Virus record (IMG/VR): IMGVR_UViG_3300001869_000005
Coordinates: 1 to 64,000 of that record
Origin: a virus
Taxonomy: Duplodnaviria; Caudoviricetes
Direction: 5' to 3' (one strand)
DNA: 64,000 bases
Part shown: positions 91 through 64,000 of the stretch, in pieces
Position numbering within the stretch: position 1 is the first letter of the stretch
How the letters are laid out: each line of letters starts with the position of its first letter
Translations under genes and position numbers: made by a program
The notes under the pieces: model-generated
The model's database searches: none
Told to the model about the DNA's origin: nothing
Seen by the model: the letters and a program-made list of their open reading frames with translations, nothing else

Positions 91-3000
91 TTATTTTTTA
101 TTAAAAACATCTTTGAATTTATAATCATAATTAACTTTAAAGAAATCATCATTACCCAAATAACTAGATTCTGATTCATCAGACCTGGAAGATAATAAAT
201 TTCCATTATACATAATCATTTTATCCTCTCTCAAAAGCATTAACATTATATTTGCAGACACTCTATCAAAGTTACCCTCTGAATTAAATCCTATAAGTTC
301 TTTAATCAACGCTCTATTCCTTATATTAAATAGATTGGGTACAGTAACTTCCTATTCTTCTCTATCAATTAACTCAACTCTAGTAGTAGGTTTAAGCAAC
401 CAGTTTCTTAACAAAGTTCTACCATATGCATTAATCGGAGCAGTAGCTACCGTACCTTTGGCTTTATTTCCAAAAGCACTTCCCTTAATCATATCCTTAT
501 CCTTTAAGAAATCAAGTATATCTGTCAATAAGTAGAGGCTATTCATCCTTGAAAAGTACGCAAACAACCCCTTTTTATTATTTTCATAATTCATTCGCCC
601 ATTAAAAAATAAACACAGTCTTCTGGCCATCTCATAGAAATCATCTGCATACTAAGGTCTACCCGTATATTCTGCAACATAATTGTCTGTCCACAAGTCT
701 AATACAAATATAGAACCTAAAGATAAAGTATCAGAACTATCATCATCATAGGGGTCAGCAGAAAGAATATATCTATTTGCAAATATTTTACCAGTTTTAT
801 CCTTCTCAGGCATTTTATATATTTCTAATGCCCCATGTATCTTATTGTCTTTGTGGGGAAATTCTCTGATTGGTATATCATTAGTAATCTTAAATTCAAC
901 TTCTCCCGACTTACTTAGAACTAAATCTCCAACAAACACATCATCATATTCTCTAGGATTCATATCTATTTGAGCCAAACGTTCTGTTAAATCTGCCATT
1001 GGAAACATATTTACTCCGACCTTAACAATAGCTTCTGCGGGAGTAATAGGAATTTCAGCAATAGTCTTAATAATTGTATTGGGATCACTGGAATTATACT
1101 TTACTTTAAATCTATTTTTTAATATCTATATAAGAGCAGCAATTATATCCGATACTCCATCTTTATTCATACATCCCTTTCTATTAATGTATCCAGGAAA
1201 GAAGAATACAAAGTCTTTTCTACCCTAATTAAATTTGTCAAATACGTTGGGTAGTGCATACATATTATATCCTCTAGGATTATACATAATTTCTTGGGCC
1301 CCAGCAAAATCAGATTCATCATCACCTGCGGTATTATGTGTTATAATGTTATTAGCTAAGTAAGTATGACTTAAACAAGCCGATAGATTGTAAATATCTT
1401 GTAACCCAACATTTTTTATACTCTTTATTTTGTATACAAGTAAATCATCTGAATATCCACATTCTTTTTTACTTTTATTTAGTTCAAACCATTCTTTTAT
1501 TAAATTTAAATTTTTGGTTTTATGGCTTACCAAAAGATTTAAAACATTTGACACTTTTATTAAATTGTTTCTACCACCTATAACTAGTGTATACCAAGAA
1601 TTCTTATCTTTTCTTCCCAATTTTATATTAGGAGAAGTTTTCGTAATACTACCAATTACACCAAATTTTCTCCATAAAATTTGTATCTATTTAAGTATAT
1701 CATCATTTGATTGGGTAATACCCACATAACTTTTTTGTCCACACGAATAAACTGTTCCATCAGTATCATATAAACCAGAAAGAAGATCAATAACATTGTT
1801 CCTATCAAGGGTTTGATAATTATTGGGCAGTCTCTTTTTGGTTTTAGTCTGACCATATATTCCTATATTTCTTAACAAAGGACAGATCTTTCTAATTCTC
1901 ATTTCTTGATAAATCTTTCCTTTCTTAGTAACGTTTGTTTTAAACACAGTATATTCATAAGATTTTTGTATATACTGTTGCAACTCAATGTCTTCTGAAC
2001 TGTATTTAGGTGTCTAATCAAATCCATAACTTCCATCACCTATTAACATTCCTATAAGTCTAGGATCAAATAGTATATCTTTCCCAAATATATTAATTGT
2101 TCTACACTCACAAATTCTATCACCTACACCCAACTAGTCTGCCGGTTTAAACTATTCTTTAAAAACAGTATTTCTTTTGTTGGCGATCTTATATGATACT
2201 TTCCTAGGATGAGAAATTGTCTATGTATATATAGGATGGTCTTTAGAACATCTTAAAATATTACCATTTGTTAATACTATTTCAACACATTCTTTTTTGG
2301 AGACATCTATTAATTTACCAATAGGTTCCTTAGTAATACCATTTGTTAAGTTTTTTAAATTATCTGTAAAATTTATACCATCACTGTATCCAATTATACC
2401 ATCTTCTTTTAAAAGGGCTTCAATTGGTATATTTCTTCCATCTATAGCCCATACTTTTGTTCCTTTACAGACACAACCCAACATATAAATTTGGCCAAAT
2501 GCTATATCCCCTTCCTATACAGAAGGCAATAACACGTTATATAGATCAAGTAACCGAGGAAAAGTTCCCATCTCCTCGATCAAAATGTCACAAGCTCGTT
2601 TACCACGAAGTTTAGATTCATCATCATTAGAGGATACACCAACAACAGAATTAAGAGTACCTTTTTCAATACCTAATTCTGCATCCTTGTATCCCATACG
2701 CCAAATCATATCTTGCATACTATCTCTTAATCGTTTCCTTGGAAACTAAGTAAATTCTGCACAAAAGTCCATCATTGGTATAAATTTACTAAGTGTACCA
2801 TCTTTACCAGATAAATACTCTTTACTAGAAGCAGTTATAATGGACATTGTATTTTTAAAAGCAATCTCATTTTCTCCTATAACAATATTGTGTGCAAGGA
2901 TAGATGCTAAGCAATAACTCTTACTCTTGCCACGACTAGCTAATTCCGCGCAATGTTGACCACCTTCCCAATTGTTATAAAGACCTCCATTTTTAGCCTA

Positions 3001-3516
3001 ATCTTTATAATGAAATCTCCAGTAGACTCCTTCCCACATATGAGGAAAATCCTAAATTCTATTAGCTCTTTTGGTACCTTCAATCATTTCTGCCAACATA
3101 ATTGGAGAATAATTCAAGTAAAAATACATTAGTCCCGTAATCCACTCACCATCAGACTCTCTAACCATACCTACCCAACACCGATCTCTTTCTTGTCTAA
3201 TCCACTTACCAAATTCAGAGTTAATATTAGCATTTGGTTTTAGATGGGTCAATACTCCATGTTTCTTGTAGTACAATGCAGTAGGCCTAAAGTAGTCCAT
3301 ATCTTCGAGAATATGTGGGTTAACTAAGTCAACTATAATTCGTCCTTTAGAATCTCTAGGTCTATCTTTAGCATAACCTCTTTTAGGATCTATTAATGTT
3401 CTTATAAAGGGAACATTATTAATAAAGTCTAACAACTAATCAGACGCCTCTTGTGGTAAAGAATTCAGTAATTCATCTGTGATTTCTGTCTAATATTTAT
3501 TAACCTATATATTCAT
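91..3516 (-). CDS. terL: Terminase large subunit, TAG-recoded, intein-containing (1141 aa precursor, about 760 aa spliced)
   Basis: ORF fragments 91-309, 352-630, 652-1008, 1225-1620, 1687-1983, 2221-2484, 2515-2718 and 3052-3435 share one frame and end in TAG except the final TAA. Motifs: Walker A-like SRGKSKS, Walker B ILIEEMG, motif III G-TAG, nuclease SADPYDDD, C-terminal GNFDRVSA. Confidence 0.95.
1333..2475 (-). mobile_element. Intein (381 aa) with LAGLIDADG homing endonuclease, inserted in terminase ATPase motif III
   Basis: Begins CVCKGTKV after extein MLG; ends ANNIITHN before +1 Thr (TAGDD); block B SKDHP; LAGLIDADG motifs LIGMLIGDGS and LLSGLYDTDGT; five in-frame TAG codons. Confidence 0.93.
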
Positions 3517-3518
3517 GT

Positions 3519-4073
3519 TTAATCATTTAATGAATCTTCAAATACACTTTTCTACCCCTAGCCCCGCATTTTTCCAAACTCTATAAGTTCAGAAGCAATC
3601 GCTTTTTCTGCAGCATCTAAGTCTTTAGCTAGTGATGGAACTTGTTTAATTGTTGCTGTAATTACATTTAAAGTATAGATAGGTTTACCCCTATCATCTG
3701 TTTCATCTAATTTAATATCTCTTAAAAGAGCTCTTAATTTATCAACGGCACACTTAGTATCTTCTAGTAGTAACACAGACATAGACTTAAAACTAAGGAA
3801 AAACTCCATAGCTTCTTGTACCTATTTATCTGGTTTCCAATTATTTGGTAAACCTTCTCCTTCTTTTATAGCATTACTTCTTAATTGATTATCTGTAATA
3901 TATTGATAATCACTTCTTGGATCACACATAAAATATATATAACCCAATTCTAGTAATGCTTTTTCCTTGTTAATTGTTTTATCTCTGTTCCAGAGTTGTT
4001 TAAAGGGTTTTAACATCAAAGCCTCTGGTTCTATTGAAATCTTATAACCCTCGTATTTGAAAAGTTTAATCAT
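3519..4073 (-). CDS. Conserved crAss-like protein upstream of terL (possible small terminase subunit), TAG-recoded, 184 aa
   Basis: ORFs 3822-4073 and 3558-3809 are in frame, joined across TAG; true TAA at 3519-3521 next to the terL ATG. Confidence 0.8.
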
Positions 4074-4088
4074 TTTTTATAAATGTAA

Positions 4089-4120
4089 ATAGCCTGTTAA
4101 GAATTTACTTAGCAGGCTAT
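4089..4120 (-). terminator. Stem-loop between the GroES-like gene and the next gene
   Basis: Inverted repeat ATAGCCTGTTAAG / CTTAGCAGGCTAT. Confidence 0.5.
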
Positions 4121-4125
4121 AATTA

Positions 4126-4554
4126 TTAATTAATAATCTTTTGTTTTGGTGGTATAATTATATGAGCCTTTATTTCTGGATCTGGTTCTTCCGACCATTC
4201 CTCCACAATAAATTCAATATCCCTGTCTTGTAAAAGTAAACACTCTATGCCATTAATAGATACAACATCAAAGTTGTATTTTGTTGTCATATTGTCTGAG
4301 ATAATACCATCTTGTAGAGTATTCTCTTTATGTTCCTTTATTGCAAATCTACTAGGATTAATACACACCAAATCCCCAACCTTTATTTCTCGCACAGAAC
4401 CGCCAATAGCAATTACTTTTTGATACTCCTTTAAACCTGTTTTTGTTTTAGTGGGATCTATAATTCCACCAGTAGTATATTTATCTGCATTGTACCTTTC
4501 CATAGAAGTCACAAGAGCAGTAAACATGGGTTTAATCTTCTTTATTTTCAACAT
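4126..4554 (-). CDS. groES: GroES/Cpn10-like co-chaperonin
   Basis: IKPM..GGIID..KVIAIGGSVREIKVGDLV..LLLQDRDI pattern of the Cpn10 fold. Confidence 0.7.
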   Translation of the reverse strand: MLKIKKIKPMFTALVTSMERYNADKYTTGGIIDPTKTKTGLKEYQKVIAIGGSVREIKVGDLVCINPSRFAIKEHKENTLQDGIISDNMTTKYNFDVVSINGIECLLLQDRDIEFIVEEWSEEPDPEIKAHIIIPPKQKIIN

Positions 4555-4813
4555 TCTTTTTATTCTTTAAATAGTTATATTTAGCCTTCCTTTTTTGCAT
4601 AGTCTCATACGTACAATACAATTTTCCAAGAGAGGGTAAGTTAAAATTAGTTCTTAGTTTAGAAAAATCTTCTTCAGATAAGTCTTCTTTTAGTGGTAAA
4701 GTTTTTGCAGTCTCTCTAATAAACTACCAATAAGATCTGTATGCTTTATTCACCAAGTCTGGAGAAATATTCAATTCTTCACCAATCTGTTTAAATACTT
4801 TAGTATAGTTCAT
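4532..4813 (-). CDS. HU/IHF-like DNA-binding protein, one internal TAG (93 aa)
   Basis: Not in ORF track; MNYTKVFKQIGEELNISPDLVNKAYRSYW(TAG)FIRE...FNLPSLGKL. Confidence 0.75.
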
Positions 4814-5197
4814 TTATTTCAGTTCAAACAATATTAATAGTTTAAACACTCCTGAATCTTCTTCTATATTTGGAATAAATCTTGGATTGATCTTATTATC
4901 TTCTATAACTTTACTTTTTCTTAATTTACCCATAATTACTTGAAAATGGGCAAGACTTATATTACAATCTTCTCTAACCTTACGTTTGGTTTCATCACTC
5001 ATAGTAACCCGATCTAAAATTGCATTATCTTTTATAACCTTACTTAAAGCATATCGCTCTTTTAAAAAGGCTGTGATAATATCCATCTCTCGTGAGGTTA
5101 AATGATGAAATGGTTGTAAGAACTCAAACCAATATCTAAAAAACTTACCTTCTATGGATGTAGGAATGCGTACTACATTGTTAGCATTCTTACTCAT
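4814..5197 (-). CDS. Hypothetical protein (possible winged-helix)
   Basis: 127 aa ORF tightly packed in the operon. Confidence 0.7.
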   Translation of the reverse strand: MSKNANNVVRIPTSIEGKFFRYWFEFLQPFHHLTSREMDIITAFLKERYALSKVIKDNAILDRVTMSDETKRKVREDCNISLAHFQVIMGKLRKSKVIEDNKINPRFIPNIEEDSGVFKLLILFELK

Positions 5198-5202
5198 ACC
5201 TT

Positions 5203-5499
5203 TTAATCTTTTGTATCAGATTTTGTATCAGGCATAACTTCTGGATCTGGAACAGTAATAATTGCTTGAATTTCATCCATTGCGTTTTTAACAAAATCTG
5301 TTTTACCATATTCAAAATATAAATTACTATTTTCTAACACCATGAACAAATAATCCAAACGCTTGAATGCATTTGTCATATTAGCCTCTTGTAGTTTAGT
5401 GTATAGTGCTTTAGCTTGCTCACTGAGTTGATGTGCTACATTACTCAGTTCTTCGTAAGACATTTGTTGTTTCTTCTCCTCTTTAACTTCTTTTGCCAT
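5203..5499 (-). CDS. Hypothetical coiled-coil protein
   Basis: 98 aa ORF, operon packing. Confidence 0.75.
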   Translation of the reverse strand: MAKEVKEEKKQQMSYEELSNVAHQLSEQAKALYTKLQEANMTNAFKRLDYLFMVLENSNLYFEYGKTDFVKNAMDEIQAIITVPDPEVMPDTKSDTKD

Positions 5500-5500
5500 T

Positions 5501-5686
5501 TTATTTTCTATTTAAAAATTTTGTACCATTTTTTTGTTCATATAACTCTTCCCATTCTTTTATATCCATAACCGCTGTTTCAGTATTTCCACAATCATCA
5601 CAATAGTCTGATTCATCTATAATCCTAATAGCCAGAGATAAACATTTTTTACAGTATGTTATAGGTTCTTTATTATACTCGGACAT
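5501..5686 (-). CDS. Small Zn-ribbon protein
   Basis: CKKC and CDDC pairs. Confidence 0.75.
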   Translation of the reverse strand: MSEYNKEPITYCKKCLSLAIRIIDESDYCDDCGNTETAVMDIKEWEELYEQKNGTKFLNRK

Positions 5687-5963
5687 TCTCTAAATACTCT
5701 CTATACCTTCCATATATTTGTTTTTTTAATTCATTAGTTACTCTACTATGTACACCAACACGTTTACTACTATTAACCCTATTGTTGAAGGGTTTGTTTG
5801 GAGCAATAACTCCTATACTAGTAACATGCCCCCTTCTTATAGCCCTTGAAACAGATTTAAATTTACCAACGGCATCAAATGTTTTTAGTCCTTGATTACT
5901 AGCAAGGTATTCTTTAAACTCTTCTTGAGACATTGGTTCTCTTTCTACTTTATTCTCTTCCAT
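5673..5963 (-). CDS. Hypothetical basic protein
   Basis: 96 aa ORF overlapping neighbours. Confidence 0.7.
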   Translation of the reverse strand: MEENKVEREPMSQEEFKEYLASNQGLKTFDAVGKFKSVSRAIRRGHVTSIGVIAPNKPFNNRVNSSKRVGVHSRVTNELKKQIYGRYREYLENVRV

Positions 5964-6112
5964 TAATTAAAGTATATTAGTACAAGTTGCCCTATTGCAT
6001 CTTTTACAATAGTAAAGCAATCTTCTTTTTTTATTTGATTATTGTTTACAAACTCTACTATTGACCGAATATTATTTGCTGAAAAGGTGTTCATCTTCTT
6101 CTCTTCCTCCAT
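5963..6112 (-). CDS. Small hypothetical protein (49 aa)
   Basis: MEEEKKMNTF...; fills the gap and its TAA overlaps the next ATG. Confidence 0.55.
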   Translation of the reverse strand: MEEEKKMNTFSANNIRSIVEFVNNNQIKKEDCFTIVKDAIGQLVLIYFN

Positions 6113-6117
6113 AAACG

Positions 6118-6543
6118 TTATCCTTTACACAATTTGAATAAAAAGTTCATCTTATTTAGTTCGTGAATAAATACTTCAGTTTCACTTTTTATACCAGATA
6201 ATTCTGGTTTATTTTCCAATCCAGTATAGAAGTTTATAGTCTTTACCTTTAGCATTTCCAACATGGTTAAAGGATCTATTGCTTCACAAGATACGCCACT
6301 AATTACATTCGGCGCCATCTTACCGTAGATTCCCATAGAATCTTCTGCTATAAAATCTTGAAAGTCTCCTACAATATCCAGTAGTTCATCTAATTTAACG
6401 TGGATGTTAAGAGCAAATGATGCCCAATGTAAATTCTTAATTTTAGTTTTATAACCCTCTAAGATATTAACATAATTTATAAAATATCCTAAACCCGAAG
6501 TAGTTACCTCTCTTTCCTAGTATTGATCAAATAATGTTTCCAT
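6118..6543 (-). CDS. Dps/ferritin-like protein, TAG at codon 9 (141 aa)
   Basis: Frame extends upstream of ORF 6118-6336 to ATG 6543 through TAG 6517-6519; ferroxidase-like NLHW...HVKLDE...DFIAE. Confidence 0.75.
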
Positions 6544-6544
6544 A

Positions 6545-7465
6545 TTATTTTGGTATTCTTGTTATTAATGATTTCATTTTTTCTTTAGTTAACATATTAA
6601 CCCTACCTCTACTGATTGCTCCACAAGTACATCTAAATAGTTCATACTTAGCAGTTTGAGTATAATGATAACCCTCTATTTTAGTTAGATGAGTGCTACC
6701 ACAATTAGCACATACGGGTTCATTAGAGTCAATATACATACCCACGTTAGGGTGATTTTTAATCCAAGGTCTAAGTTTAAGATATACTTCTTCAAGTATC
6801 TCTACATCCTTCTCATTATATACATTCATATAATGCAATGACTCTTCATCTCCTTCTAAACACTTAGACCATAATTCAAATCCTGTATGAAGTTTGTGGT
6901 CAATACCAAAATATCCAGCAAGAGCATCTAACTTATTAGAACTAAAACCAAATTGTTTCTTTACAATTTGTAGTGTATCAATTTGCTGATAAGGTTTAGT
7001 GGGGGATAACCCATTCATTAGGAACCTACTATTAATCTTAGGTATGTCAAAATTATTACCATTGTGGGCGATTACTATATCTGCTTGATTCATAACATCC
7101 CATAAAGATCTCATAATTCTACCATCATCTTCTTTTTTAACTTCTTCTGAGGTTAGTACATCTGACATTACGTCTACTGAGAATAACCATTTAGCAGACC
7201 ATGATAAACAGAACCATTCTCCTATAGTTTGATCTAAATAAATATTCTGTTGCCATCTTCCCCAAACATAAGCTTTTAATGGAGAGGTTTCAATGTCTAA
7301 AATTAATATTTTTGGAATATGCACTTTTTCATTTCTAACTGCTTTTTTAGCAACATAAATTGTGTCTCTTGTAGTCTTAAAAATTCTTGCTAATGATCCA
7401 GCACCCATATTTAACATATAGGATTTTTTAGTCATTACATCAATAATTTGTTTTAATTCTGCCAT
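6545..7465 (-). CDS. RNase H-like (DEDD) 3'-5' exonuclease with C-terminal Zn ribbon
   Basis: ILDIET, AHNGNNFD, YNEKDV motifs; CANCGS and CTCG. Confidence 0.85.
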   Translation of the reverse strand: MAELKQIIDVMTKKSYMLNMGAGSLARIFKTTRDTIYVAKKAVRNEKVHIPKILILDIETSPLKAYVWGRWQQNIYLDQTIGEWFCLSWSAKWLFSVDVMSDVLTSEEVKKEDDGRIMRSLWDVMNQADIVIAHNGNNFDIPKINSRFLMNGLSPTKPYQQIDTLQIVKKQFGFSSNKLDALAGYFGIDHKLHTGFELWSKCLEGDEESLHYMNVYNEKDVEILEEVYLKLRPWIKNHPNVGMYIDSNEPVCANCGSTHLTKIEGYHYTQTAKYELFRCTCGAISRGRVNMLTKEKMKSLITRIPK

Positions 7466-7483
7466 TCTTATTTATTTAATTTG

Positions 7484-7555
7484 TTGCGAGAGGTAGATTC
7501 GAACTACCGACCACGAGGTTATGAGCCTCATAAACTGCCACTACTCCATCTCGCA
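7484..7555 (-). tRNA. tRNA with CAT anticodon (Met; Ile2 not excluded), CCA not encoded
   Basis: Acceptor TGCGAGA/TCTCGCA, anticodon arm TGAGG-CTCATAA-CCTCG, T arm GGTAG-TTCGAAT-CTACC. Confidence 0.9.
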
Positions 7556-7559
7556 AATT

Positions 7560-7765
7560 TGACCCACTACTTTAGCTTAGGGTCTACAGCTAACTAGAAG
7601 CTTTCTGCAGATAAGTCTAGTGCGCCCAATTGTGTTGAAAGTAATTAACTTACAGGGACAATTGGCTCTATTAGGAGAGGGGACTACAGATGCACTTCTG
7701 CACCTAGGCAAGTTTTTTATTTAATGTGAGGTTCCTCATACCTCATTACAGTTTTTATCCCCTCA
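7560..7765 (-). ncRNA. Candidate structured ncRNA between the two tRNAs
   Basis: No convincing ORF; stems GAGGGGAT/GTCCCCTC, CCAATTG/CAATTGG, CTAGA/TCTAG, GACCC/GGGTC. Confidence 0.45.
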
Positions 7766-7781
7766 AATGATTTTAATTATT

Positions 7782-7857
7782 TGGTCGCCCCACTAGGATT
7801 CGGACCCAGACTAAGAGTTTTAGAGGCTCCTTTGCTAAACCATTACAACATAGGGCA
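7782..7857 (-). tRNA. Amber suppressor tRNA (anticodon CUA), tRNA-Gln-like body, CCA encoded
   Basis: TGCCCTA...GGAGC-CTCTAAA-ACTCT...CTGGG-TCCGAAT-CCTAG-TGGGGCG-A-CCA; anticodon at 7821-7823. Confidence 0.93.
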
Positions 7858-7875
7858 ATATATTCTTAATCCCTT

Positions 7876-8202
7876 TTACATAAAACACTTTTGCATTAAT
7901 TTATCTTTTTCCTCTAGGGTAAGAAAGTCCCATAGGATAAAAAAGTCTACACCATTTTCTTGTTTAAATTTTGTAAAATTTTCAGCCATTGTTGAGAAGT
8001 ATATCCTTCCTTTATCAAAATTAAATTGACAGGTTTTTAAGAATTTCAAAACAATATCTGCGGTTCTATCGTCAATGCTTTTAGGTTGTGTATCCGATTG
8101 GTTAATCGTCTCTTTTAAAGAATTATTATATTCTATCAATATGTTTATATTCTTTTCTAATTCTTTTTGTTCAAAAATAAGCTGTTCTTTTAAATAACTC
8201 AT
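7876..8202 (-). CDS. Hypothetical protein, co-transcribed with the tRNAs
   Basis: 108 aa ORF directly after a promoter. Confidence 0.65.
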   Translation of the reverse strand: MSYLKEQLIFEQKELEKNINILIEYNNSLKETINQSDTQPKSIDDRTADIVLKFLKTCQFNFDKGRIYFSTMAENFTKFKQENGVDFFILWDFLTLEEKDKLMQKCFM

Positions 8203-8228
8203 GTTTTTAATTGTTTTTAATTATAATA

Positions 8229-8260
8229 CAAAGATAAGTAAAAAATCTGAGACTACCAAA
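8229..8260 (-). promoter_or_regulatory. Bacteroidota sigma70-type promoter upstream of the suppressor tRNA operon
   Basis: -33 TTTG (8257-8260), 20-nt spacer, -7 TATCTTTG (8229-8236). Confidence 0.8.
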
Positions 8261-8282
8261 TATTTTGGTAACTATTTTTAAA

Positions 8283-8528
8283 TTATTTTGAGTTTTCTTT
8301 CTTTTTCACAATAAACTGTAGTAAAAAGATAGAGGCAAGTCCTACAATTACTACTCCTGATAGAACTTCAGATGGAACTGATTCTCTAAATTCTCCTGGA
8401 ACCTTATCCCAGGCAATCCAAATTGCACCACATGCCGCAGATAGTCCTGTAAGAATATTCTATATTCCAGTTACAAATGCAGGAGTATGGGAGAAGAATC
8501 TCTGTTTTAGAGTTAGTTTCTTTTTCAT
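8283..8528 (-). CDS. Putative holin / two-TM membrane protein with an internal TAG (81 aa)
   Basis: Not in ORF track; basic N-terminus, hydrophobic segments ILTGLSAACGAIWIAW and VLSGVVIVGLASIFLLQFIV, basic tail; TAG at 8460-8462. Confidence 0.6.
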
Positions 8529-8634
8529 ATTAGTCTTATATAATTTTGTTTTTTATTAGATCTCAAATCAATAATAATATGTAAATACTTTTTACCTATT
8601 TTTATTTTAAATCTATATACGTGTTTTAATATAT

Positions 8635-8844
8635 TCATTTTTTACATATATTATCACTACCTGTCATATAAGTAGTCATTCCTGGTTCTCTTACTTGTTC
8701 TCTTTCAGAACTGCATATAGGGCATTTACATCCACTATCAATTACTCTACCTACTACTTTATCATAGTAGAGAGTTACTTTGTTTTCCACCATTAGATCT
8801 CCGTGAAGAGAGCATAATTCATTTGTACATTTATATATTGGCAT
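8635..8844 (-). CDS. Small Zn-ribbon protein
   Basis: MPIYKC..C...CPIC. Confidence 0.7.
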   Translation of the reverse strand: MPIYKCTNELCSLHGDLMVENKVTLYYDKVVGRVIDSGCKCPICSSEREQVREPGMTTYMTGSDNICKK

Positions 8845-8845
8845 A

Positions 8846-9748
8846 TTATTTTTTCTTTTTTAAATAAAACCTATCATATACTTCAAATGGTTTACCCGCA
8901 CCTAATGGTTCTGCTAATCCTTTAGTATCCCATATATCATAATATGATATATAATTTCCTTCTTTGTCTTTTCCTTTACTTACTTGGTAATTTCCTAATT
9001 CTCCTAACCCACTTCTAGAATTTTTATTAGTCGTTGGAAAAGGATAATATCTAGGAATATTATATTTGTTATCTGATATTTTTGTTATTGGTGCAGAATT
9101 TGCTGTCTTGTTTTTATTTTCTTCATAAATGTCCGTTCCTCTTTCTATCCCATACTATTTTATTAACTCATTCTTATATGCAGTTTTATAATCTCCTCCA
9201 GTTTTTATATCTATTGAATCTATATAATTAGATAAATCTTGCATAAATGGTTCTATTTTAGGATCATTTATAGAAATATAAGTATTTTTATCATTACTGT
9301 TATTTGCAGGTTTATACTTACTTTCAGACAATAAATCATTTACAGGATTATAACCACCATAATAACTTCTTAATTCACTGTATGTATTTATATTACTTTC
9401 ATTCATTGGTCCTGTAAAAATACCTTGTAAACCTTGTGTAAGAGGGGATAATAAGTTTCCTTTAAAATCTTTTCTAGTGGTTATAGGTTCATTGTGATTC
9501 ATAATCTAGTAAGGTAATTTTTCCTATGACTGTTTGTGTTCAACAATCTTTTTAGGAGCAACTAGTTTAATCTAGGTATTATCCTACATCATCATTGTAT
9601 CATTAGGTCTCTATAGATTTAACTTCAATCCACCACCCTCAGCAAAACTGTTGTAATGCTATTTTATATCCTATAGAGAACTCATTCCACCCTTCACATA
9701 AATTCCCATCAATTCAGATCTTTGTGACATACTTAATTTATCCCACAT
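8846..9748 (-). CDS. TAG-recoded hypothetical protein (300 aa), possibly virion-associated
   Basis: ORF 9155-9502 extends in both directions through TAGs; begins MWDKLSMSQRSELM...HYNSFAEGG and ends GNYISYYDIWD...GKPFEVYDRFY. Confidence 0.75.
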
Positions 9749-9773
9749 ATATTTTTAATTTAATTTGTTCATT

Positions 9774-9800
9774 AAAAAAGCCCCTCTTAGTAGAGAGGCT
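9774..9800 (-). terminator. Rho-independent terminator closing the DUF559 unit
   Basis: Minus strand AGCCTCTCT-ACTA-AGAGGGGCT followed by a T tract. Confidence 0.75.
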
Positions 9801-9806
9801 GATTAG

Positions 9807-9929
9807 TTATTTCCAATTGATGTTATCCTTTTTCACATTCCATACATGAGCTGCCATTGTTTTACCTTCACTATTTTCAAGGGACATAAACTCATATACT
9901 TCTTTTTCCTTCTTTACTTTCTTCTCCAT
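9807..9929 (-). CDS. Small hypothetical protein (40 aa)
   Basis: MEKKVKKEKEVYEF...; lies between the nuclease and the terminator. Confidence 0.45.
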   Translation of the reverse strand: MEKKVKKEKEVYEFMSLENSEGKTMAAHVWNVKKDNINWK

Positions 9930-9935
9930 TTGTTT

Positions 9936-10391: not shown

Positions 10392-10400
10392 TGTTTTTTA

Positions 10401-10919: not shown

Positions 10920-10924
10920 AATAA

Positions 10925-11252: not shown

Positions 11253-11257
11253 CAGTA

Positions 11258-11288
11258 CAAAGGTAATAAAAAAAATGATATAAACAAA
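11258..11288 (-). promoter_or_regulatory. Bacteroidota sigma70-type promoter
   Basis: -33 TTTG (11285-11288), 19-nt spacer, -7 TACCTTTG. Confidence 0.8.
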
Positions 11289-11321
11289 CAAATAAGCAAT
11301 TTATTTATATCAATATAAAAT

Positions 11322-11768: not shown

Positions 11769-11779
11769 TTTTTAAGGGA

Positions 11780-54400: not shown

Positions 54401-55524
54401 TCTAGGGCAAATAATTTAGTTCTATTTCTCTATAGATTCTTTATATCAATCTAATCTGCAACTCTATTAGCTAGTATGTCTTGAGCAAATTCACCAACTT
54501 CTTGGTTAACCTACTCTATCGCTTTCTGTAAATCCTATTCTAAACCCTTCTTAGTTAATCCATTAAAGAATTGTTTAATTGCATCAAAAAACCTAGTCAA
54601 TAAATTCTTATAAGGCACATTAGGAATCGACTCATTTTTAAGCCAATATTTAGATACTAACTATCCAAGTGCTTCTTTAGCTAACAAAAGACCGTCTCCT
54701 TTATACTATGCCTCATACGCACCATATGATTCACCCAGGATTTCCTAAACTACTCCTTCCTATCCAATAAGATTTAAAAGTCTACTTACTATAGGATGAT
54801 TCTATCCAAGTAATTCAATTATAGCATGCGCAAATTCTTCAGGAACTGCCTTTTCACCCCTATCATCTCTACTTATTCTAATAACCTCTAGGAGCCCATC
54901 TACGGTCTTTTTAGCTGTTAAAGTATCCATAACACCATTAATACCCATCTATTCTTCTACTTCATTTAAAAAGCCATCTGAGATACCATAAGACTTGCCT
55001 AACTCTCTTAATCTTTTGTTTAAAGCTATATTAACATCCTATTCTTTTTCTAAATTCTATTGAGAATATAAAATAGTAGCGTATGGATCATCTCTGCCTT
55101 CTACTATTTTTATATGACGTTTTCCATTAGCTGCTCTATTAGACTACATGTGGTAAGATAGAGATAAAGGATTACTTGGGCTGTTAAACTTTTTTACAAT
55201 TTCCCTAGCCATTTCCATAGTATAATTCTTTACCGCACCGTTTGAATTATATCTACCTTCCTAATGGTCTAGTTCATCTATATAAGATTCCTATGATTGT
55301 AACCCCATTAATACTTTAACTGGGCCAATTATAAATTCACCATTCTCATCAACCGGTAATACCTATTTATATTCATCTATCTTTTCTGGATCAGTTAAAC
55401 CTTTATATATTTGTGTCGCATTCTAATAGGTGGTAGATTGGAGCAAACCTCTATTTAGTTTGCTCTCAATCACATTACCATTCCTATCAGTAATCGGCAT
55501 CACTGTTATACACGAATTTGCCAT
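51493..55524 (-). CDS. Large virion cargo/ejection protein, TAG-recoded (1343 aa)
   Basis: Fragments 52147-52383, 52906-53151 and 53500-53682 share one frame and end in TAG; ATG 55524, TAA 51493; hydrophobic segment near the C-terminus. Confidence 0.85.
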
Positions 55525-55529
55525 ATTAA

Positions 55530-58500
55530 TTATTTAGTTTTACAAAATACTTGTCCATTCTCATCAGTAGGTTCATAAGTACTCTACATAATCTCTCTCT
55601 ACATTTGTTTAAATTTTTCAGTAAAATTACCCTATTTATGTTCTACTACAGGAGGAGGAGTTTCATTTTCAAATCCTTCCATAGGCATAGATTCTGGGCC
55701 TTCAACATCCTCATCTTCATATCCCTTGTATTTAGCATCAATTTGAGAAGTCATATCTTCCATATTTAATCCATTTTGATACTCTAAGAACTTATTAGGT
55801 ATTCCTATAGGATTATCTATAAGAGTGTATTGAGTTATATAGTAATCTCCTCCATCATCATTAACTAATTCGCTTGTTCCAATTACAGTATAATAGTATT
55901 CTACTCCATTTAATTTTTTCATAATTATCGGGAAATTAACCCCATCCCTAACCATTAATTGTCCATTGGTTTTTCCATCTGCAGAAGTACGAACATCAAT
56001 AGTTTCATTTAGACTTTTTCCAACCAGAAATACAGAATCATTAATTTCATTCACTTCCGGTACAAACTTTCTCACATTTCTATGATTCATTAAGTATTGG
56101 TCTATAAACCCTCTATAAGCATCTTCTTTAGTAAACATCAAGTTCAATTTAATTAGCGTTCGTCTATATCCTGGAATTACTAATCTAATATTTACAGGGG
56201 CTAAATGAATAAAACTAGTTGGCCCAAATGCCAATCCATTTCTAAAGTAACTATATGCAAATAAATCCTTAGCTAATTTAGCACCTTCTTCACCCATAGA
56301 AAGTAACGAATCCCAATCTCTTGTTACAGTGTCTTTCTAATTAGGAGAAAGTGAGCCAACATTGTTAAAGGTAATTATTTTTTTATCTTTATCATCATTG
56401 ATTACTGTTAAGCCTTTAATAAATGCTAATTCACCAAGTTCTTTATTGGATTTTTTTATCTTTTCAAATTCATCTGGAAATTTATTAATGTAGTAATTCC
56501 TCTTCTATTCAGCTTCTTTAGCAGTTTTGCCACCAAAGAATTCTAACTCAGAAGTAATGTATACAAATAGATCTGCATAAATCTATTTAACCTATTTAGC
56601 AGTTAAACTCCCTTTAGAGAATTCAGATCGTTTGGTTAAATTTTTAATCTAACTAACTACATATCTAAAAGATTCTTGTGTGTATGGATAATATTGACTC
56701 AAAAGTAATTCTGCAGTTTCTAATCCAAGTGTATAATTAGCCTAAACTATTGGTAAAGGGCTACTATTAATTTTTTCTCTTAATTGATTAATATTTTCTT
56801 TTTTAGTAAAACTCTTATCTTTTAATATATTAGTTTTGATCAAATCTGCACTCTCAAGAGGAAAATTCTTACTCTTACTTTCTATCATCAATTCTTTAAC
56901 ATCGTCAATCTTTAAATCTGTATCTGCTTGATGAGGCCCTGTAGATCCTCCAGTAGTATCACTACGCATAGATGAAACTATACGTGAAAGTATCTACGAC
57001 GGTTCATTTAAAGCCTTAAACGCATTAGCAATCTTTAATTGGAATACATAATACTATCTATGTTCAGTTGGAGTTAATTCTTTCCCTTTTGCTATGGCAT
57101 TAGCATAAACAATTGCTGTAGCCATATCACTTTGAGATAATTCAGAATTCTTATAATCTTGTTCTTCTTTTGAATATTTAGTTTCACCAAAGAACTATTC
57201 AATTGTCTTTTTAACAGAATCTCTTTTACTTACTCCACTATCACTTAATAATTCATAATTGTCACTCATTTCAACCACAATAGGCTAAGACAAAAACAAA
57301 CCAATTGTTCCATGAGTGTGGCCCTATCTAGCTAAAAACATTGCTAGATCTGCAGTAAACCCATTTAAATTTAAGTCACTCAATACAGGGTCTTTTACAG
57401 CATCTACAGAGGCTGCTACATACTCAGATGTGTTTCTACTAATATATTGTTTATGTTCATTTAGTATATCATGCAGACTCAAATACTCCTTATTACCTAA
57501 CTTAACACCAAATCCTTTTTTAATTGTTAGTTCGGTTCCCTGTATAACAGAATGATTTGCATTGTGATTTGCAAAAACACCAATTAGTGCTCCAGCAGTA
57601 TGATTAGCTTTGTGGAAATTTGTCTAAGTAGAAGGACTAAGAGGATCTAATTGCTGTTTATACTTTTCAGATCTTTCATCTAATTCCTTTAAACTTAAAC
57701 TATTCAAGTACTTGGGAACATTTCCTTTAGATTCTACTAGTAGATTTCTATATTCTGCAAGAGAAATTCCCTTTAATACATTGATAACTCTAGCAGATTT
57801 CTTTAATCCATCAAAACCACCAGGATTAATCATATTTAATACAGTGTCAGCATTTGTAAGAATTCCCCACATAGTATCAATGATTTCATTATTTCTGGCT
57901 TTTAATGTATTCTAATCAACTGATTTATTTACATCATATTTAACCTTTTCAATTATTTCTCCCAGAAGATAATCTTTTTTGTTTTCTTGCCAAGTATTAT
58001 AAATGTTACGTTCAGTACTATCTTCTGCATATACTTTACTACCATTTTCATCAACAACTTCTATATCCTTAATATATGTGATTCCCTTAATTGTTTTAAA
58101 CTATTCAGAGTTTACACTAGAATCTCCACCTAACTATTCTATTAACTCCTTAATAAATCCATTTCTATCATATTTATTCCTGGTAGAAAATTCAGGAAGC
58201 ATTATATATAATTTATCCACGTCAAAGTCAAGACCAGCTATTGTGGTAATTTCCTTAGGGAACATAATTGTACTACCAGACTATTGTGGTAAAAAACCTT
58301 TAATATATAAAGGAAATATTGAATATTTATTCTCAGTTGGAATTCTATAACCAATTAATTTCCTTAATTCTTCTGGTAATACCTTCATAGGATCACCATT
58401 TTTATCCTTTAAATTTTTATGTACTGCATCTATATCTAGTTCACCTGTTTTTGGATCCATAAATTCCTTAAAATACTTAGAAGAATACCAAGGCATATAG

Positions 58501-61500
58501 GTTTCAATGTATTCAATGTGTTTTTCATTTTTGTCATTAGTCCCCCATTTGATATTTAAATCATCTTGTACTCCAAATGATGTTACATGTACAAGAGAAC
58601 CACCTTTAGTCTTCTATTTAGTAATCTCATTCTTAATTCCTGAATGCAATAGACTCTAAGTACGGTCTGAATGAATCTAATCACTGTATGGAAGTGTAGG
58701 AAATCCATCTTCTGCAATTTCAAGAGCTTTAGCCATTTCTGGATTATATCTTTTATTGCCATTAACTTCCTTTTTTAATGTATTGTTGACGGCTTCTTTA
58801 TCTCCCAATTCATCAACAGTCTTATAAAAAGAAGTTATTAGATTCTCAATATTTAGATCGTCAAAGTGTTTACTAATCTCCGCTTTATTATATTTCTTTC
58901 CATTAACAATATAGTCAATCCCTTCTTTTAAATCACCTTTAATAAGTTTTTTAGCCTAAGTACCAATCCCCTAATTGGTATCCATGTAGTGACTAGGCAC
59001 AGGTTGTACAAGAGCATAATCCTCGTAAGAAAGACTATGTACTACCTAAGGATTGTATCGTCCTACATTAGAGCTTATAGACTCCTGTAGGTATCCTTTA
59101 ATTGCTTCTTTAGTAGTAAATTTATGCACATCTAACGCACCCTATCCTCCGACTTTTACAGCACTGGAAAACTATACTACATCAATCTGATTCTCTTCCA
59201 TAAATTCTTCAATAGCCGAAAGCTAAGGAGACTTTCTTAATATATTAGAAAAGATTAATAGGAATTCTGCATTCTTATTTTGTATAGGAGTTTTAAGTGA
59301 ATAATCCTAAGTAATCTTCCTTTTTTCATCTTTAACTAGTCCAGGATTAGCGATCTACGTATACATAAAAGGTTTTTTGGGTTGCCAAATTACATTGAAA
59401 TCTTCAACATCAAATTTAACATCCTCACCTTTTTGCATCTTTTTAAGTTTATCAAAAACTCTCTGCATTTCATCAGTCCACTAGCCAGACATATCCATAA
59501 TTGCTCTATAGGAAGAAAGAGTTCTATATGCTTGAGCATCAGTTACTTCTACATTGTTATTACTATATTTATCTAATATAAAATCTCTATCTTTTGCGGT
59601 AAGCATTTCTTTTTTGACAAATCCATTCAAAGCTTCTTTAATATCTTCTAAAGTATTTGAAACGGATTTAAAATCCTTTAGAAATACTGTATTTTCAATA
59701 TCTCTACCATATTCCGAAGTAGTGTCTAATCTTAATCCTGGAGTATGAATTTGTTTCATACGTTTCTATATATCTCCCAGATTCTTGTAATAAGCTAAAT
59801 CAGTAGTAGTGATCTACAACATCTATGATTGAGCATACCGTTGATTCCAGAAGTAATTTTTCAACTCCTTTTCAGCATTTTCTATACTACTAAGATTCTA
59901 TAGATGTTTAAGAGTCTTTCCATCATCAGTCATTTTGAACAAACCGATCTTTCTATATCTTATTTTTTCCTGTTCATACAATGCATCTGTTTCATCCTTG
60001 ATAATTTGTTTCAATTCTGTCCTGAATTCTTCCATAGTTTCAGGCATATCCTCATTTAATTTTTTATCAAATAAAGGCATATAGTTGTTTAGGAATGGAA
60101 GAAATTGAAATTCTAAACCCCTTTTTTCAAAATTATCAATAGGGGCCATTAACCCCTTAGCAATTTGTTCTTGTCTATTTCTAACTATCTTAATTCTATC
60201 ATATTCCTACATAGCTAAATCATAGAATCCATTTAAAAGAGTATTTTCCCAATCACCGCTAGTATCAGTTGTATATTTATGAAACTTTACAAACTCTGCA
60301 GAAGGGGCATCAGCTAAAATAAATACTGGATACCACGCTACTTTATTATTAACATCTGAATAGTACTCATTAATCATCATCATTGTGTGATCTAATGGGC
60401 TCAATTTAGAGTACTCCTTTTTATTGTAATTTAAATTAGTTTTATGTTGAATTAATTCTCTTGATTTAGGATCTGTAACCAAATCTCTAATCCATGAGTT
60501 CCTATATTTTCCATTTGAATAAAACCAATTATACTATTTGTATTCCTTTTCAAAAAATGCCTATAACTCTTCCTCTGAATATTCCGTTCCCTTTAACTTA
60601 TTCATTAAGTCTGCCATATATGAAGGAGCCGTATATGAGTAATAACTCTTCTAGTTCGCATATACAGAACTTTTCATCAATTGGGTTAAAGACCTTGATA
60701 AGATCTCTGCAATACTTTTATAATCACTTTTAAAGGTATTGGCAAAGTCTAAATGTACTGCCTTACTGTCATTTAATTTAGTGGTAATTCTAGTAAGATT
60801 GTCCAATAATTTAACAAACATGTGATTAATATTCACAGTCATACCTTTTACATTGGGCACTTCTGGAATATAATTTAATGCTTCTAAAAGACTGGTTACA
60901 TCTGTATCTACTCCTACTGTAGCCAATACATCTCTTATCCTACCAATATTATCATTTACATATGCAGTAATCTCTTCAATGGGTTTACCTTTAATAGATT
61001 TAACCATCTCATCAATAGTAGCTCTAACTACTTCAAGATTATCCCGGTCAATATTACCAGCATCATCATATAATGAATTAAAGGATAATAGAGTTTTACT
61101 TTCCATAGTAGCTCTCCATTCGTCCATAAGGTATCTAACTCCATCTGGTTTATTCAATTCTTTGGTCATATATGTGTAAGATCCATCAGCCATTTTCTTT
61201 CGTATCTAAATCCAATAGGACATAAATACTTTTCTAAAATCCTGATAGAACACACTATGTAATTTCTAATCTTTCATTAAAGCACTTACAATACTATTAA
61301 CCCAAGGTTTAGTATTAGCTAATCGTCTAAGTATAGGTAACATCTATCTGGAATTAGTCATACCACTCAATTGTTCAATTAGTATTCCATGAACTACTTC
61401 ACTATCTAAATATACTGGCATATCTAAATCATCTAATGTTTCCGCTTTTTTAAAGTCTAATTTAGGAATTTGCATAAGTATCTTCCGAGTCTATTGACTT

Positions 61501-62474
61501 AATGCTTGTGTAGGATCAATGTGTTTATGTTTAATCATCCATCCATCCTTCACAGGATCATCGTCATTATCCTATATAACTCCTTCACCATCCTATAAGA
61601 GTGATTCAGGGATTTCTTCAGTCTCTAATCCTTTAAATATAGTTAGTTCATTATTAATAAACTTAACATCAACTTTTTCATAATCCGCAAGTAATCTAGG
61701 AGTTTCTCTAGTAAGCAATTCAAAATTCTCAACCACTTTTTTAAATTCGCTCATCTAATAATCTGTAAATATAACACTATTTGTGCTCTATTTGAGAAAG
61801 TAGTTCTTTACAAACTTATATATGTTTTCAACTCCATATTCATTGATAATTTCTTCTCGTGTAGAATTAGGTCTTAGTTTTGCTTGAATACCACTCACGT
61901 GTCTTATAAATTCTCTAGCAACTAGATTAACTCTATCAATTCGCATTTGTGGTCTATATACTTTATCTAATGCATTTGAAATGGTGATTTCTTTTATTTT
62001 AAAAATATCTTTGGCTGTCTATTCAATTTCTTTAACTTCATCTGTGTTTTCTATAGGAGTTTCAGTAGGAGTGGGTTGGATAGATTCAACAAGGGTAAAT
62101 TCAATATCTTCATCTGGATTATTTTTAACTATATATATACCAGCACCTTGGCCCTAATAATTCTAAATAAAGATCCTATCTCCTGTTTTAAGTCCATATT
62201 CATCCAGATCTAAAGCAGCATCTTGGTCTGTTGTAAAAGTAGGATAATTAGTTTCAATATTATTAGCAATCCCCAAATAATCCTTGAATTCTTCTTCTGT
62301 TGGATACGGTAATTCTTTTATTTTATTACTCAGATAGTCCGCTACAATCTATTTATCTAATGTTTTCTCTAGGTATGTACCTACATTATTAGCAGCAACA
62401 ACAGGATCTAGTCCTGTTGCTTTTGCTAATTTTATAATTCTTTCATCTGGGATGAAACAAAATACTTTACTCAT
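55530..62474 (-). CDS. Virion-packaged RNA polymerase (crAss/phi14:2 gp66-like), TAG-recoded (2314 aa)
   Basis: Catalytic GLDFDVDKLY (DFDVD at 58215-58229) and GYRIPT; all fragments in one frame and ending in TAG. Confidence 0.92.
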
Positions 62475-62480
62475 ATTTTA

Positions 62481-64000
62481 TTATTTTACACAGTTAATTG
62501 CATGTTCTTTTTGTTCTTGAGTTAAAGCGTCAAATGATTCGGGAGTAAACCCTTCTTTCATAAGAGGACCTTTTAAAAAACTTTCAAGATTTGCAAAGTT
62601 AGGTATTTTTTCTGACATTTCCTAATTTTTTGGAACATTTGTTTTACTATTTTTGAAATCAGTTGCTTTTTCACCAAAACTACCCATTAAACTTGGATCT
62701 AAATCCAATTCAAAGTCGAGAAGAGGAGAAGAAGAAGTACTTTTAGAGGTTAATTCATCAATTTTTTCAACAGGAACATTCTGTTTATGAACATCTCCGT
62801 TTGTTTTATAGGCTAATGTGTTCACATTCAATATAGACCCATCTTGAACTTTCCACTCCTGTTCATTAATTTTATGATCTTGTATGAATGTGGGGCCAAA
62901 TTTACCAGCAACACCATCTCTAATATAAGCTAAATCTACAATGGGTTTAATTTTAACCGCAGACATGATTAAATTATTATCTTCGTCAACAACAAACCCA
63001 TTATCTACAAAATATTTATCTCCTTTATAAGTTACTTCAGTTCCTTTAATCACACTCTCAGATTCAACTACTGGCTTGGGTTTTAAAGGAGTTGGTTTCT
63101 TATACAAAGTCTTATTAGTATCCAAACTAGGGGCTACAAAATCAATAGGAGTCCCTGATGGAGTTTTAGCCTATAGATAGAACCACACACCCTTTACACC
63201 TGATTTGACCATAGCAGTCTTTAAAATGTTACTATCATAGATCTTCTCATTGTATCCAGGAGAATTAATCTAACTTGCATCTACGTTGAATAGAATGTTA
63301 TTCTTATACAAGGATTCATAAATCTAATCTTTGATAGAGTCAACATCATTTCTAACTAACTTCTTTGCAGGATAGACCTTATTTGGGTTTTTATCTTGTT
63401 TAGTTAAATAAATCCTATCTGCTTTCTATAATTCTCTATATACACCATCTTCCCCTAAATCTTCCCGTCTAATAATAAGGGTAGTTTTATCTTCACTTAA
63501 ACCAATATGAATTGCCTATTTATTTTGACTAATACTCTAGCCATTCTCATCCTTTTTACTTTCGCCTAAGAATAATGCTTTAGATAATTCATTGTATCCT
63601 TCAGTAGCATCTTCAGGTTGACGAGTATTTGCCAATATATCAACCGCTTTTTCAATCTATTGAAACATTGGGTTAGCCTATGTTGTTACATCTGCTCTGT
63701 TGAACTCCTCTTTATTAAAAGTTTTAATGGTTAAAGGAACAGACGCATAATTACCATCACCCATCAATTCGTGCATATAAACCATTCCTGGTTTTGTTGG
63801 AGGAATTATCTTATTTATACTAACATGTGGATGGTTAAAATAAAAGCTTAATCCCTTAGATGCAATAGAGAATACTAATTTAGTTTTATCTACACCCTTT
63901 TTAGGATCATTTAAATCTGTATCATTACCTCTATCCTATTCAACATATCCACCATTGACCTAACCAACTACACCTGTCTCAGTAATTTTACCTGTTTCAG
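62481..64000 (-). CDS. Large virion cargo protein, C-terminal part (partial), TAG-recoded
   Basis: Frame of 62622-63125 continues through TAG codons to TAA 62481 and upstream towards the window edge. Confidence 0.8.

Follow-up and report, generated by a model that had tools for sequence, protein, structure and literature searches.

Can one phage genome be read partly by the rules of its host and partly only once those rules have been changed? The question is raised by the first 64,000 nucleotides of the IMG/VR virus record IMGVR_UViG_3300001869_000005 (Duplodnaviria; Caudoviricetes), a stretch that we call the window, in which the stop codon TAG breaks up the reading frames of one strand and leaves those of the other intact. 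An initial annotation of the window had proposed a split genetic code, with TAG recoded in late and virion genes only and served by a suppressor tRNA of the phage. We found TAG as a sense codon to be confined to the late arm of the genome, where the comparative evidence identifies it as glutamine; the idea of a second code did not hold. The source record is a single contig of 97,972 bp, rated 100% complete by CheckV, of which the window represents two thirds. Its GC content is about 30% and uniform along the genome, while the GC skew flips at about 12-14 kb and at about 51 kb, matching two divergently transcribed arms: an early/middle arm on the plus strand (12649-51451) and a late arm on the minus strand, which covers 91-11714 and 51493-64000 of the window and goes on to 97,852 in the genome.

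Under the standard bacterial code (translation table 11), the minus strand of 1-12,000 and 51,493-64,000 yielded only short open reading frames (ORFs), the longest in the 51-64 kb part encoding 221 amino acids. Reading TAG as glutamine opened four long minus-strand ORFs, at 91-3516, 51493-55524, 55530-62474 and from 62481 onward, all of them without in-frame TAA or TGA, and the remainder of the late arm opened likewise up to 97,852. Altogether, the 45 minus-arm genes (18,627 codons) hold 297 in-frame TAG, 414 CAA and 76 CAG codons and no in-frame TAA or TGA, so that TAG accounts for 38% of the glutamine codons of the late arm, which carries the genes for packaging, capsid, tail and lysis as well as the RNA polymerase packaged in the virion. 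TAA ends 44 of these 45 genes and TGA about a quarter of the early ones, and no ORF of at least 100 amino acids on either arm terminates at TAG. Once TAG is read through, the large terminase subunit (TerL), the portal, the major capsid protein (MCP) and the RNA polymerase (RNAP) subunits reach the lengths of their homologues in the standard-code phage crAss001 (Kehishuvirus primarius), and alignments with two recoded relatives showed no TAA or TGA in the frames. The terminase, HU-like, Dps-like, putative holin and RNAP/cargo genes are thus interrupted by TAG, as the initial annotation had it.

The first of the long ORFs (91-3516, minus strand) encodes a TerL of 1141 amino acids with 16 TAG codons and a TAA stop (phrog_6681, E 1.4e-87). 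Two others resemble virion RNAP subunits of crAss001: a gp49-like protein of 1343 amino acids (51493-55524, minus strand), which has 47 TAG vs 24 CAA or CAG (CAR) codons and is 38% identical to crAss001 53454-57482, and a gp50-like protein of 2314 amino acids (55530-62474, minus strand), with 51 TAG vs 49 CAR and a DFDVD motif at residue 1416. The fourth encodes a gp47-like giant virion protein of 1715 amino acids with 39 TAG codons; it spans 62481-67628 of the genome on the minus strand and leaves the window at 64000, so that the part in the window is C-terminal. PHROG searches with these three giant RNAP/cargo ORFs returned no family, and they were identified solely by tblastn to crAss001.

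The residue at TAG was assessed on the portal protein, for which 43 standard-code relatives from IMG/VR were aligned, with X placed at the TAG positions to avoid bias. Across the 17 TAG columns, glutamine filled 62% of the cells, compared with 50% in the CAA/CAG columns and 3% in all others; columns 117, 521 and 609 are invariant glutamine and column 39 is glutamine in 38 of 39 sequences. When all late proteins were compared with crAss001, glutamine was found opposite TAG in 70 of 247 cases (28%) and opposite CAR in 117 of 353, over a background of 4.1%. Of 261 TAG codons compared with a sister genome, G001, 128 stand opposite TAG, 55 opposite CAA and 7 opposite CAG, and CAA is matched by TAG in 51 of 332 positions; by this measure TAG behaves as a synonymous glutamine codon that exchanges with CAA. 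The glutamine content of the late arm is 4.2% with TAG counted and 2.6% without, and that of the crAss001 orthologues is 4.1%. On these alignments TAG is a sense codon for glutamine in the late arm (genetic code 15), and we regard this coding claim as secure. Code 15 has been validated by metaproteomics in two crAss-like phages with the same predicted TAG = Gln assignment (Peters et al. 2022, PMC9523058); the evidence there is from peptides and ours is comparative.

The plus-strand arm carries helicases, a Sak4-like protein, a primase, PolA, an exonuclease, RNA ligases and an amidoligase cluster. Its 46 ORFs of at least 100 amino acids (10,144 codons, the 686-amino-acid PolA included) contain 269 CAA and 49 CAG codons and no in-frame TAG, which bears out the earlier observation on plus-strand genes of up to 686 amino acids. 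Because the two arms hardly differ in out-of-frame TAG (0.047 and 0.056 per codon), this absence is specific to the reading frame. TAG is also missing as a stop, ending none of the 46 early ORFs here vs 13 of the 86 ORFs of crAss001; at the crAss001 rate, the chance of such a result would be 0.85^46, or about 6e-4. Since the early arm carries TAG neither as sense nor as stop, it is readable under either code, and an unmodified host ribosome can translate it. It uses no second code, and the genome has one code. What stood of the split-code proposal is therefore the confinement of sense TAG to the late arm; the second code fell away, as the early arm reads either way and the minus arm has TAG-free islands of its own.

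The sole candidate for a TAG-terminated early ORF, a doubtful one, has 67 codons (27669-27872, plus strand). Its TAG is in frame with the next gene and stands six bases ahead of the ATG of that gene at 27879, and read-through would yield a 235-amino-acid fusion (27669-28376). Read in the standard code, 27669-28376 gives two proteins, and the homologue in G001 spans only the downstream part of 165 amino acids. The ORF may be a small separate gene that becomes fused to the next one when UAG is suppressed.

The portal, MCP and TerL match crAss-like families, as do the virion proteins by PHROG. With the portal, the top matches in the phage collection were all Steigviridae: cr128_1 (73.6%), bajarodcaudo virus 1 (73.0%) and crAss001 (70.2%). 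The hallmarks of Crassvirales and Steigviridae are present, namely TerL, portal, MCP, an HU-like protein, a giant RNAP with the DFDVD motif and crAss synteny. Gene-by-gene tblastn gave full synteny with crAss001 for DpsA, HU, the GroES-like protein, gp16, TerL, portal, MCP and the tail genes gp42-gp46, and the virion RNAP/cargo proteins gp47, gp49 and gp50 also have syntenic counterparts here. Judged by these matches, the genome is that of a complete 98-kb, gut-type Steigviridae ('beta' crAss-like) phage related to crAss001, a placement made from pairwise identities and best matches, with portals 70-74% identical to those of named genera. Portal identity reached at most 74% with any record of the phage collection and 88% with one IMG/VR contig, by which the lineage is distinct from known Steigviridae records, although the phenomenon itself is known. 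Two recoded relatives that are complete with direct terminal repeats (DTRs) were used for comparison: G001, whose portal is 88% identical, and G003. The gene content and order match those of crAss001, homologues of gp44-gp50 included, at identities of about 70% for the portal, 84% for MCP, 54% for HU, 40% for DpsA and 48% for the GroES-like protein. However, crAss001 uses the standard code, with TAG as stop in those 13 of 86 ORFs, and has no CTA tRNA among its 25 tRNAs, vs two tRNAs in the genome under study.

One of these two is the suppressor tRNA that the initial annotation had predicted. ARAGORN identified an amber suppressor tRNA with anticodon CUA, tRNA(CUA), at 7782-7857 (minus strand), which Rfam scored as tRNA at 42.3 bits; the second tRNA of the whole genome, tRNA-Met(CAT) at 7483-7555 (minus strand; ARAGORN and Rfam), is the partner of the suppressor. 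The gene of tRNA(CUA) encodes the CCA end; the first pair, U1-G72, is weak and the discriminator base is A73. In E. coli, a weak first pair and U35 favour glutamine identity with tRNA-Gln and its synthetase (GlnRS), and we infer that the weak first pair of tRNA(CUA) fits that identity. The molecule belongs to the CTA-tRNA family of recoded Crassvirales, annotated as tRNA-Gln in RefSeq. It is 84-86% identical to the CTA tRNAs of the Suoliviridae cr53_1, cr60_1 and cr7_1, whose TerL proteins are about 32-36% identical, but its identity to the tRNAs of G001 and G003, its own relatives, is just 74%. In cr60_1 the same suppressor-Met pair lies just upstream of an intein-bearing TerL. These identities hint that the suppressor tRNA cassette moves laterally between crAss families. 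A descent of tRNA(CUA) from a tRNA-Gln(UUG) of the crAss001 type was considered and set aside, as the identity of 54% is uninformative.

Directly upstream of the suppressor tRNA lies orf108 (7876-8202, minus strand; 108 amino acids, TAG in 0 of 7 glutamine codons), likely the leader gene of the suppressor-tRNA unit. On the other side is a gene like that for the exonuclease subunit of a DNA polymerase (6545-7465, minus strand; 306 amino acids; phrog_403, E 1.2e-98), with TAG in 0 of 10 glutamine codons (binomial p 0.017 relative to the arm mean). Both flanking genes being TAG-free, the code-change unit is readable in the standard code. A promoter-like motif of Bacteroidota type (TTTG...TAnnTTTG) is located at 8229-8260 on the minus strand, 27 nt upstream of orf108; its position makes it suggestive, as a positional hint only. 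Motifs of the same type occur between genes at 11258-11292 and 11737-11768 (minus strand), preceding orf130 and the DUF559 unit, and all three intergenic motifs stand ahead of TAG-free units at the head of the minus arm. A scan for sigma-70 promoters was uninformative (79 found vs 83 expected). Between the two tRNAs, a non-coding spacer of 226 nt (7556-7781, minus strand) is less AT-rich than its surroundings and had no match in an Rfam search with E values up to 1; possible identities are a processed RNA and a decayed tRNA.

No release factor or aminoacyl-tRNA synthetase had been noticed in the window, and domain searches extended to the complete 97,972-bp genome agreed: neither an RF-1/PCRF domain (PF00472, PF03462) nor a class-Ic Glu/Gln-tRNA synthetase domain (PF00749) was found, while control genomes matched.

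The partition of TAG is not purely one of strand, as genes with and without TAG are interspersed at the head of the minus arm. TAG is missing from orf130, from two tandem DUF559/Vsr-like endonuclease genes (9936-10919, minus strand; Pfam DUF559, E 4.8e-14 and 3.3e-18; 0 of 14 glutamine codons), from the unit made up of orf108, the two tRNAs and the exonuclease gene, from a GroES-like co-chaperonin gene (4126-4554, minus strand; crAss001 gp15-like, 48% identical; 0 of 4) and from several small genes. The GroES-like gene, the exonuclease gene and the DUF559 pair had been described as TAG-free from the start. TAG-bearing genes at the arm head include orf300 (8846-9748, minus strand; 300 amino acids, 8 TAG among 14 glutamine codons), which had no match in PHROG and Pfam family searches, as well as the putative holin, Dps-like and HU-like genes. 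The first of these three, a holin by its earlier label, encodes 81 amino acids with two hydrophobic segments (8283-8528, minus strand). The Dps-like gene (6118-6543, minus strand; 141 amino acids) is crAss001 gp7-like, being 40% identical to gp7 ('putative DpsA'), with a weak, below cut-off Pfam match to DUF5856. The HU-like gene (4532-4813, minus strand; 93 amino acids) is crAss001 gp14-like and 54% identical to crAss001 7152-7400 ('protein HU'). Next to TerL, a crAss001 gp16-like protein of 184 amino acids with 3 TAG codons (3519-4073, minus strand) is 50% identical to crAss001 7873-8394.

The initial annotation had described a graded TAG load, dense in the cargo/RNAP genes and down to a single codon in HU, Dps and holin. 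Heterogeneity in TAG/(TAG+CAR) among genes is real (chi2 107.6, df 29, p 6e-11). The single codons are not part of it: each of the three small genes has TAG in 1 of 3 glutamine codons, and because this fraction (0.33) is that of the arm as a whole (0.38), the single TAG reflects gene size. High fractions were found in the gp49-like (0.66, binomial p 1.7e-6) and gp50-like (0.51) genes and in a spanin-like gene at 86447-87127 of the genome, outside the window (10 TAG vs 5 CAR, 0.67, p 0.03), whose function is predicted and which stands for a single genome. Two other lysis-region genes and the holin-like gene, likewise predicted functions in a single genome, are at the arm mean. At the low end are MCP (0.14) and an 832-amino-acid tail-region protein at genome 90096-92594 (minus strand, outside the window), which has TAG in 0 of 20 glutamine codons (p 1e-4) among TAG-rich neighbours and is absent from G001, G003 and crAss001. 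The whole tail-fibre module around it (87.1-95.5 kb) has no counterpart in these three genomes, and has the look of a host-range cassette that came in recently from a source with the standard code.

Both G001 and G003 keep the two-arm partition of TAG. The positions of the codons turn over, 49% being common with G001 and about 5% with G003; what is preserved is therefore the pattern, and not individual codons. The base after an in-frame TAG is a purine in 78% of cases and C in 3.7%, vs 63% and 13% after CAA/CAG (p 1.4e-6), and CAG alone also differs from TAG in this respect (p 0.009). A purine after UAG is a suppression-friendly context in E. coli amber suppression, and the bias would be consistent with selection for efficient suppression against release factor 1 (RF1).

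With regard to timing, RNA-seq of crAss001 has shown three modules that accord with the direction of the ORFs: an early one (0-10 min), a middle one for replication (10-30 min) and a late one (30-60 min), which comprises structural, terminase, chaperone and lysis genes (PMC8375218). By synteny, the TAG-free arm would correspond to the early plus middle modules and the TAG arm to the late one. The virion RNAP genes are a special case, as in crAss001 the transcription of gp49 and gp50 falls in the middle stage, and that of gp47 in the late one (PMC8375218). In crAss001 and G003 the gp50-gp49 block sits on the strand of the replication (middle) genes, while here (51493-62474, minus strand) it is inverted. 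In this phage as in G001, the block runs in the direction of the late genes, and no other part of the genome is as rich in TAG. G003 has retained the orientation of crAss001; there, 3 TAG stand against 110 CAR in the gp50-like gene and 32 TAG against 35 CAR in the gp49-like gene.

Taken as a whole, the observations are best explained by a code-15 Steigviridae phage with an early arm readable in the code of the host and a late arm dependent on tRNA(CUA), a reading that we hold to be very probable. After injection, the early and middle genes would be translated under the standard code of the host. At the head of the late arm, a putative promoter of host type would then drive the small TAG-free unit with the suppressor tRNA, which would be charged with glutamine by the host GlnRS and allow full-length late proteins to be made; without this tRNA, host-code translation would cut them at a median codon of 38. 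At a minimum, TAG would be a safety lock for the products of the late, lysis and virion-RNAP genes. As every stop of the phage is TAA or TGA, release factor 2 (RF2) alone can terminate all phage genes, and the phage could tolerate the loss or out-competition of host RF1. We favour such a safety lock over a timer because tRNA(CUA) sits at the head of the late arm.

Several points weigh against this reading. Being encoded on the late strand, tRNA(CUA) may be made at the same time as the late mRNAs, which would make of TAG a lock and not a timer, and orf300, with its 8 TAG codons, and the holin-like gene lie on the upstream side of it, relative to transcription. To read ORFs with about 50 UAG codons, suppression in competition with host RF1 has to be nearly complete; the phage encodes no RF2, RF1 antagonist or GlnRS. 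The timing of expression is borrowed from crAss001 by synteny, and the charging of tRNA(CUA) with glutamine is deduced from alignments and the anticodon. The total of Bacteroidota-type promoter motifs in the window is not above chance (9 found vs 5.6 expected). Moreover, the first TAG of a gene is not nearer to the gene start than a random choice among its glutamine codons would place it (P 0.19), and we rejected an early first TAG as a designed block on this ground. The timing switch in the strict sense, which the initial annotation had inferred, is the hypothesis of Borges et al.; sequence cannot prove it, and a passive model fits most of the data equally well.

That passive model is the most durable of the rival explanations, and we consider it a real possibility, if a somewhat less than even one. 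It accepts the code change but gives TAG no regulatory role: with a suppressor tRNA available late in infection, CAR-to-TAG changes would be neutral in late genes and lethal in early ones, and both the partition and the uneven load would simply reflect when genes are expressed, how old they are and the drift of a genome rich in AT. The fast turnover of TAG positions, with about half of them common with a relative whose portal is 88% identical and about one in twenty with G003, speaks in its favour, as does the random placement of the first TAG. The TAG-free genes of the late arm are mostly accessory or swapped ones that are absent from the relatives (the 832-amino-acid tail protein, the exonuclease, the DUF559 pair), which fits recent import from standard-code sources, and better conserved genes tend to have a lower TAG fraction (Spearman -0.43, p 0.06). 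On the other hand, the spanin-like and virion-RNAP genes exceed the TAG use of the arm mean, Borges et al. found the same lysis-gene bias in many crAss-like genomes, and the purging of TAG as a stop from early genes too needs selection beyond tolerance.

Another explanation, which we find unlikely, follows the hypothesis stated in Yutin et al. 2021 (PMC7886860) that the suppressor tRNA is a weapon, its main benefit being damage to the gene expression of the host or a competitor through read-through of their UAG stops, with TAG in late genes as a secondary effect. A phage that never stops at TAG would be immune to its own suppressor, and its transfer-messenger RNA (tmRNA, described below) could deal with read-through products. 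This explanation leaves unaccounted for the 38% of TAG among late glutamine codons and the avoidance of sense TAG in early genes, and tmRNA among the relatives is not tied to recoding.

Equally improbable in our view is a TAG lock that re-times proteins independently of transcription and that would need a putative early phage factor neutralising host RF1. It is suggested by the gp50 and gp49 genes, 'middle' in crAss001 but on the late strand and most TAG-dense here, with a further clue in G003, where the crAss001 orientation is kept and the gp50-like gene is TAG-poor yet the gp49-like gene TAG-rich. About 50 UAG codons per ORF, the purine after TAG and the exclusive use of RF2-readable stops together point to an active competition with RF1. 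Since tRNA(CUA) is nearer to those of Suoliviridae than to those of its sister genome, the lock may also spread as a small mobile cassette.

It is very improbable that TAG encodes a residue other than glutamine, such as pyrrolysine, Glu, Lys or Tyr. ARAGORN does call the suppressor tRNA 'Pyl', and E and K are the next commonest residues in TAG columns. However, the 'Pyl' label is set by the anticodon alone, and we rejected it on the alignment evidence: TAG columns act like CAR columns throughout, CAR columns, too, usually have E and K as replacements, and several portal TAG columns are invariant glutamine. We give practically no credence to an artefact, be it a chimera assembled from a standard-code phage and a recoded one or a set of decayed pseudogenes, since the record, though classed as 'linear' by IMG/VR and without terminal repeats, is complete by CheckV, uniform in GC and in complete synteny with crAss001, has the same two-arm pattern as two independent DTR-complete relatives, and has frames that TAG interrupts 297 times and TAA or TGA never.

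To return to the code-15 phage with its tRNA-dependent late arm, the pattern has already been described by Yutin et al. (2021), Borges et al. (2021) and Peters et al. (2022), and what we report is a known phenomenon in a new lineage. Yutin et al. 2021 (Nat Commun, PMC7886860) described phages of the same order and of the Beta/Steigviridae group in which TAG stands for glutamine and the phage carries a suppressor tRNA; there is no difference in kind, the present genome being a distinct lineage. Borges et al. (bioRxiv 10.1101/2021.08.26.457843) reported recoded crAss-like phages with standard-code replication genes and a lysis-gene bias, and proposed the timing model. As in their phages, the replication genes here are standard-compatible, the structural and lysis genes form one recoded unit, and the spanin gene prefers TAG. 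Unlike in those phages, the strongest TAG preference is found in the virion RNAP subunits, with the gp49-like gene foremost. Unlike the Jade, Lak and Agate phages, this one shows no 'code-change module' with a release factor or synthetase.

In practice, the genome needs gene calling in code 15 or in two codes, as table 11 shreds more than half of the proteome, with TerL, portal, MCP, tail, lysis and virion RNAP proteins among those fragmented. It adds another clean case of a phage altering the decoding rules of a standard-code host during infection. The finding opens no new question; its assets are the fully TAG-free early arm and the existence of an experimentally timed standard-code relative in crAss001. 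Compared with each other, crAss001 and this lineage, whose RNAP block is inverted and heavily recoded, could help to show whether recoding controls timing, and the same pair could serve to ask how about 50 UAG codons per ORF are read against RF1.

Apart from the recoding itself, the early arm holds a one-piece phage tmRNA at 19003-19379 (plus strand), scored at 73.4 bits by Rfam RF00023 (cut-off 47), with a G3-U70 acceptor pair. The tag predicted by ARAGORN has 20 residues, ends in ...YAMAS and is followed by a TGA stop. Its homologue in G001 (65.8 bits) has compensatory changes in the T-arm and a conserved tag frame with synonymous changes, ending in ...MAA. A blastn search against the phage collection gave no match, and the tmRNA was absent from the recoded G003 and from five standard-code relatives. 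In RF1-free E. coli, stalls at UAG are resolved by tmRNA (PMC6207430), and we considered the phage tmRNA as a recoding accessory, but its presence in G001 and absence from the equally recoded G003 support no link, though the E. coli work makes a functional connection conceivable.

A second accessory element of the early arm is a cluster at 35639-42024 (plus strand) of an ATP-grasp enzyme, glutamine amidotransferases, a COOH-NH2 ligase and an amidoligase. It also occurs in the recoded G003 (ligase 57% identical) and, by ORF sizes, in G001, and is absent from crAss001 and four other standard-code relatives. We considered the cluster as part of the recoding machinery and rejected it as specific to recoding, since the standard-code Steigviridae phage cr108_1, whose portal has no internal stops, carries it too and since it is widespread in unrelated Pseudomonas and enterobacterial phages.

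Finally, TerL contains a LAGLIDADG intein at about residues 386-730 (Pfam LAGLIDADG_3, E 8.6e-12, and Intein_splicing). With 5 of the TAG codons of its gene lying in the intein, the homing endonuclease also depends on the suppressor tRNA. The closest relatives, G001 among them, lack the intein in TerL proteins with exteins that are 89-91% identical, and homologues of the intein are found in a standard-code relative, L042 (54% identical), and in the Suoliviridae phage cr53_1 (36%). An intein and alternative coding within one gene, as in this TerL, were also described by Yutin et al. 2021 (PMC7886860).

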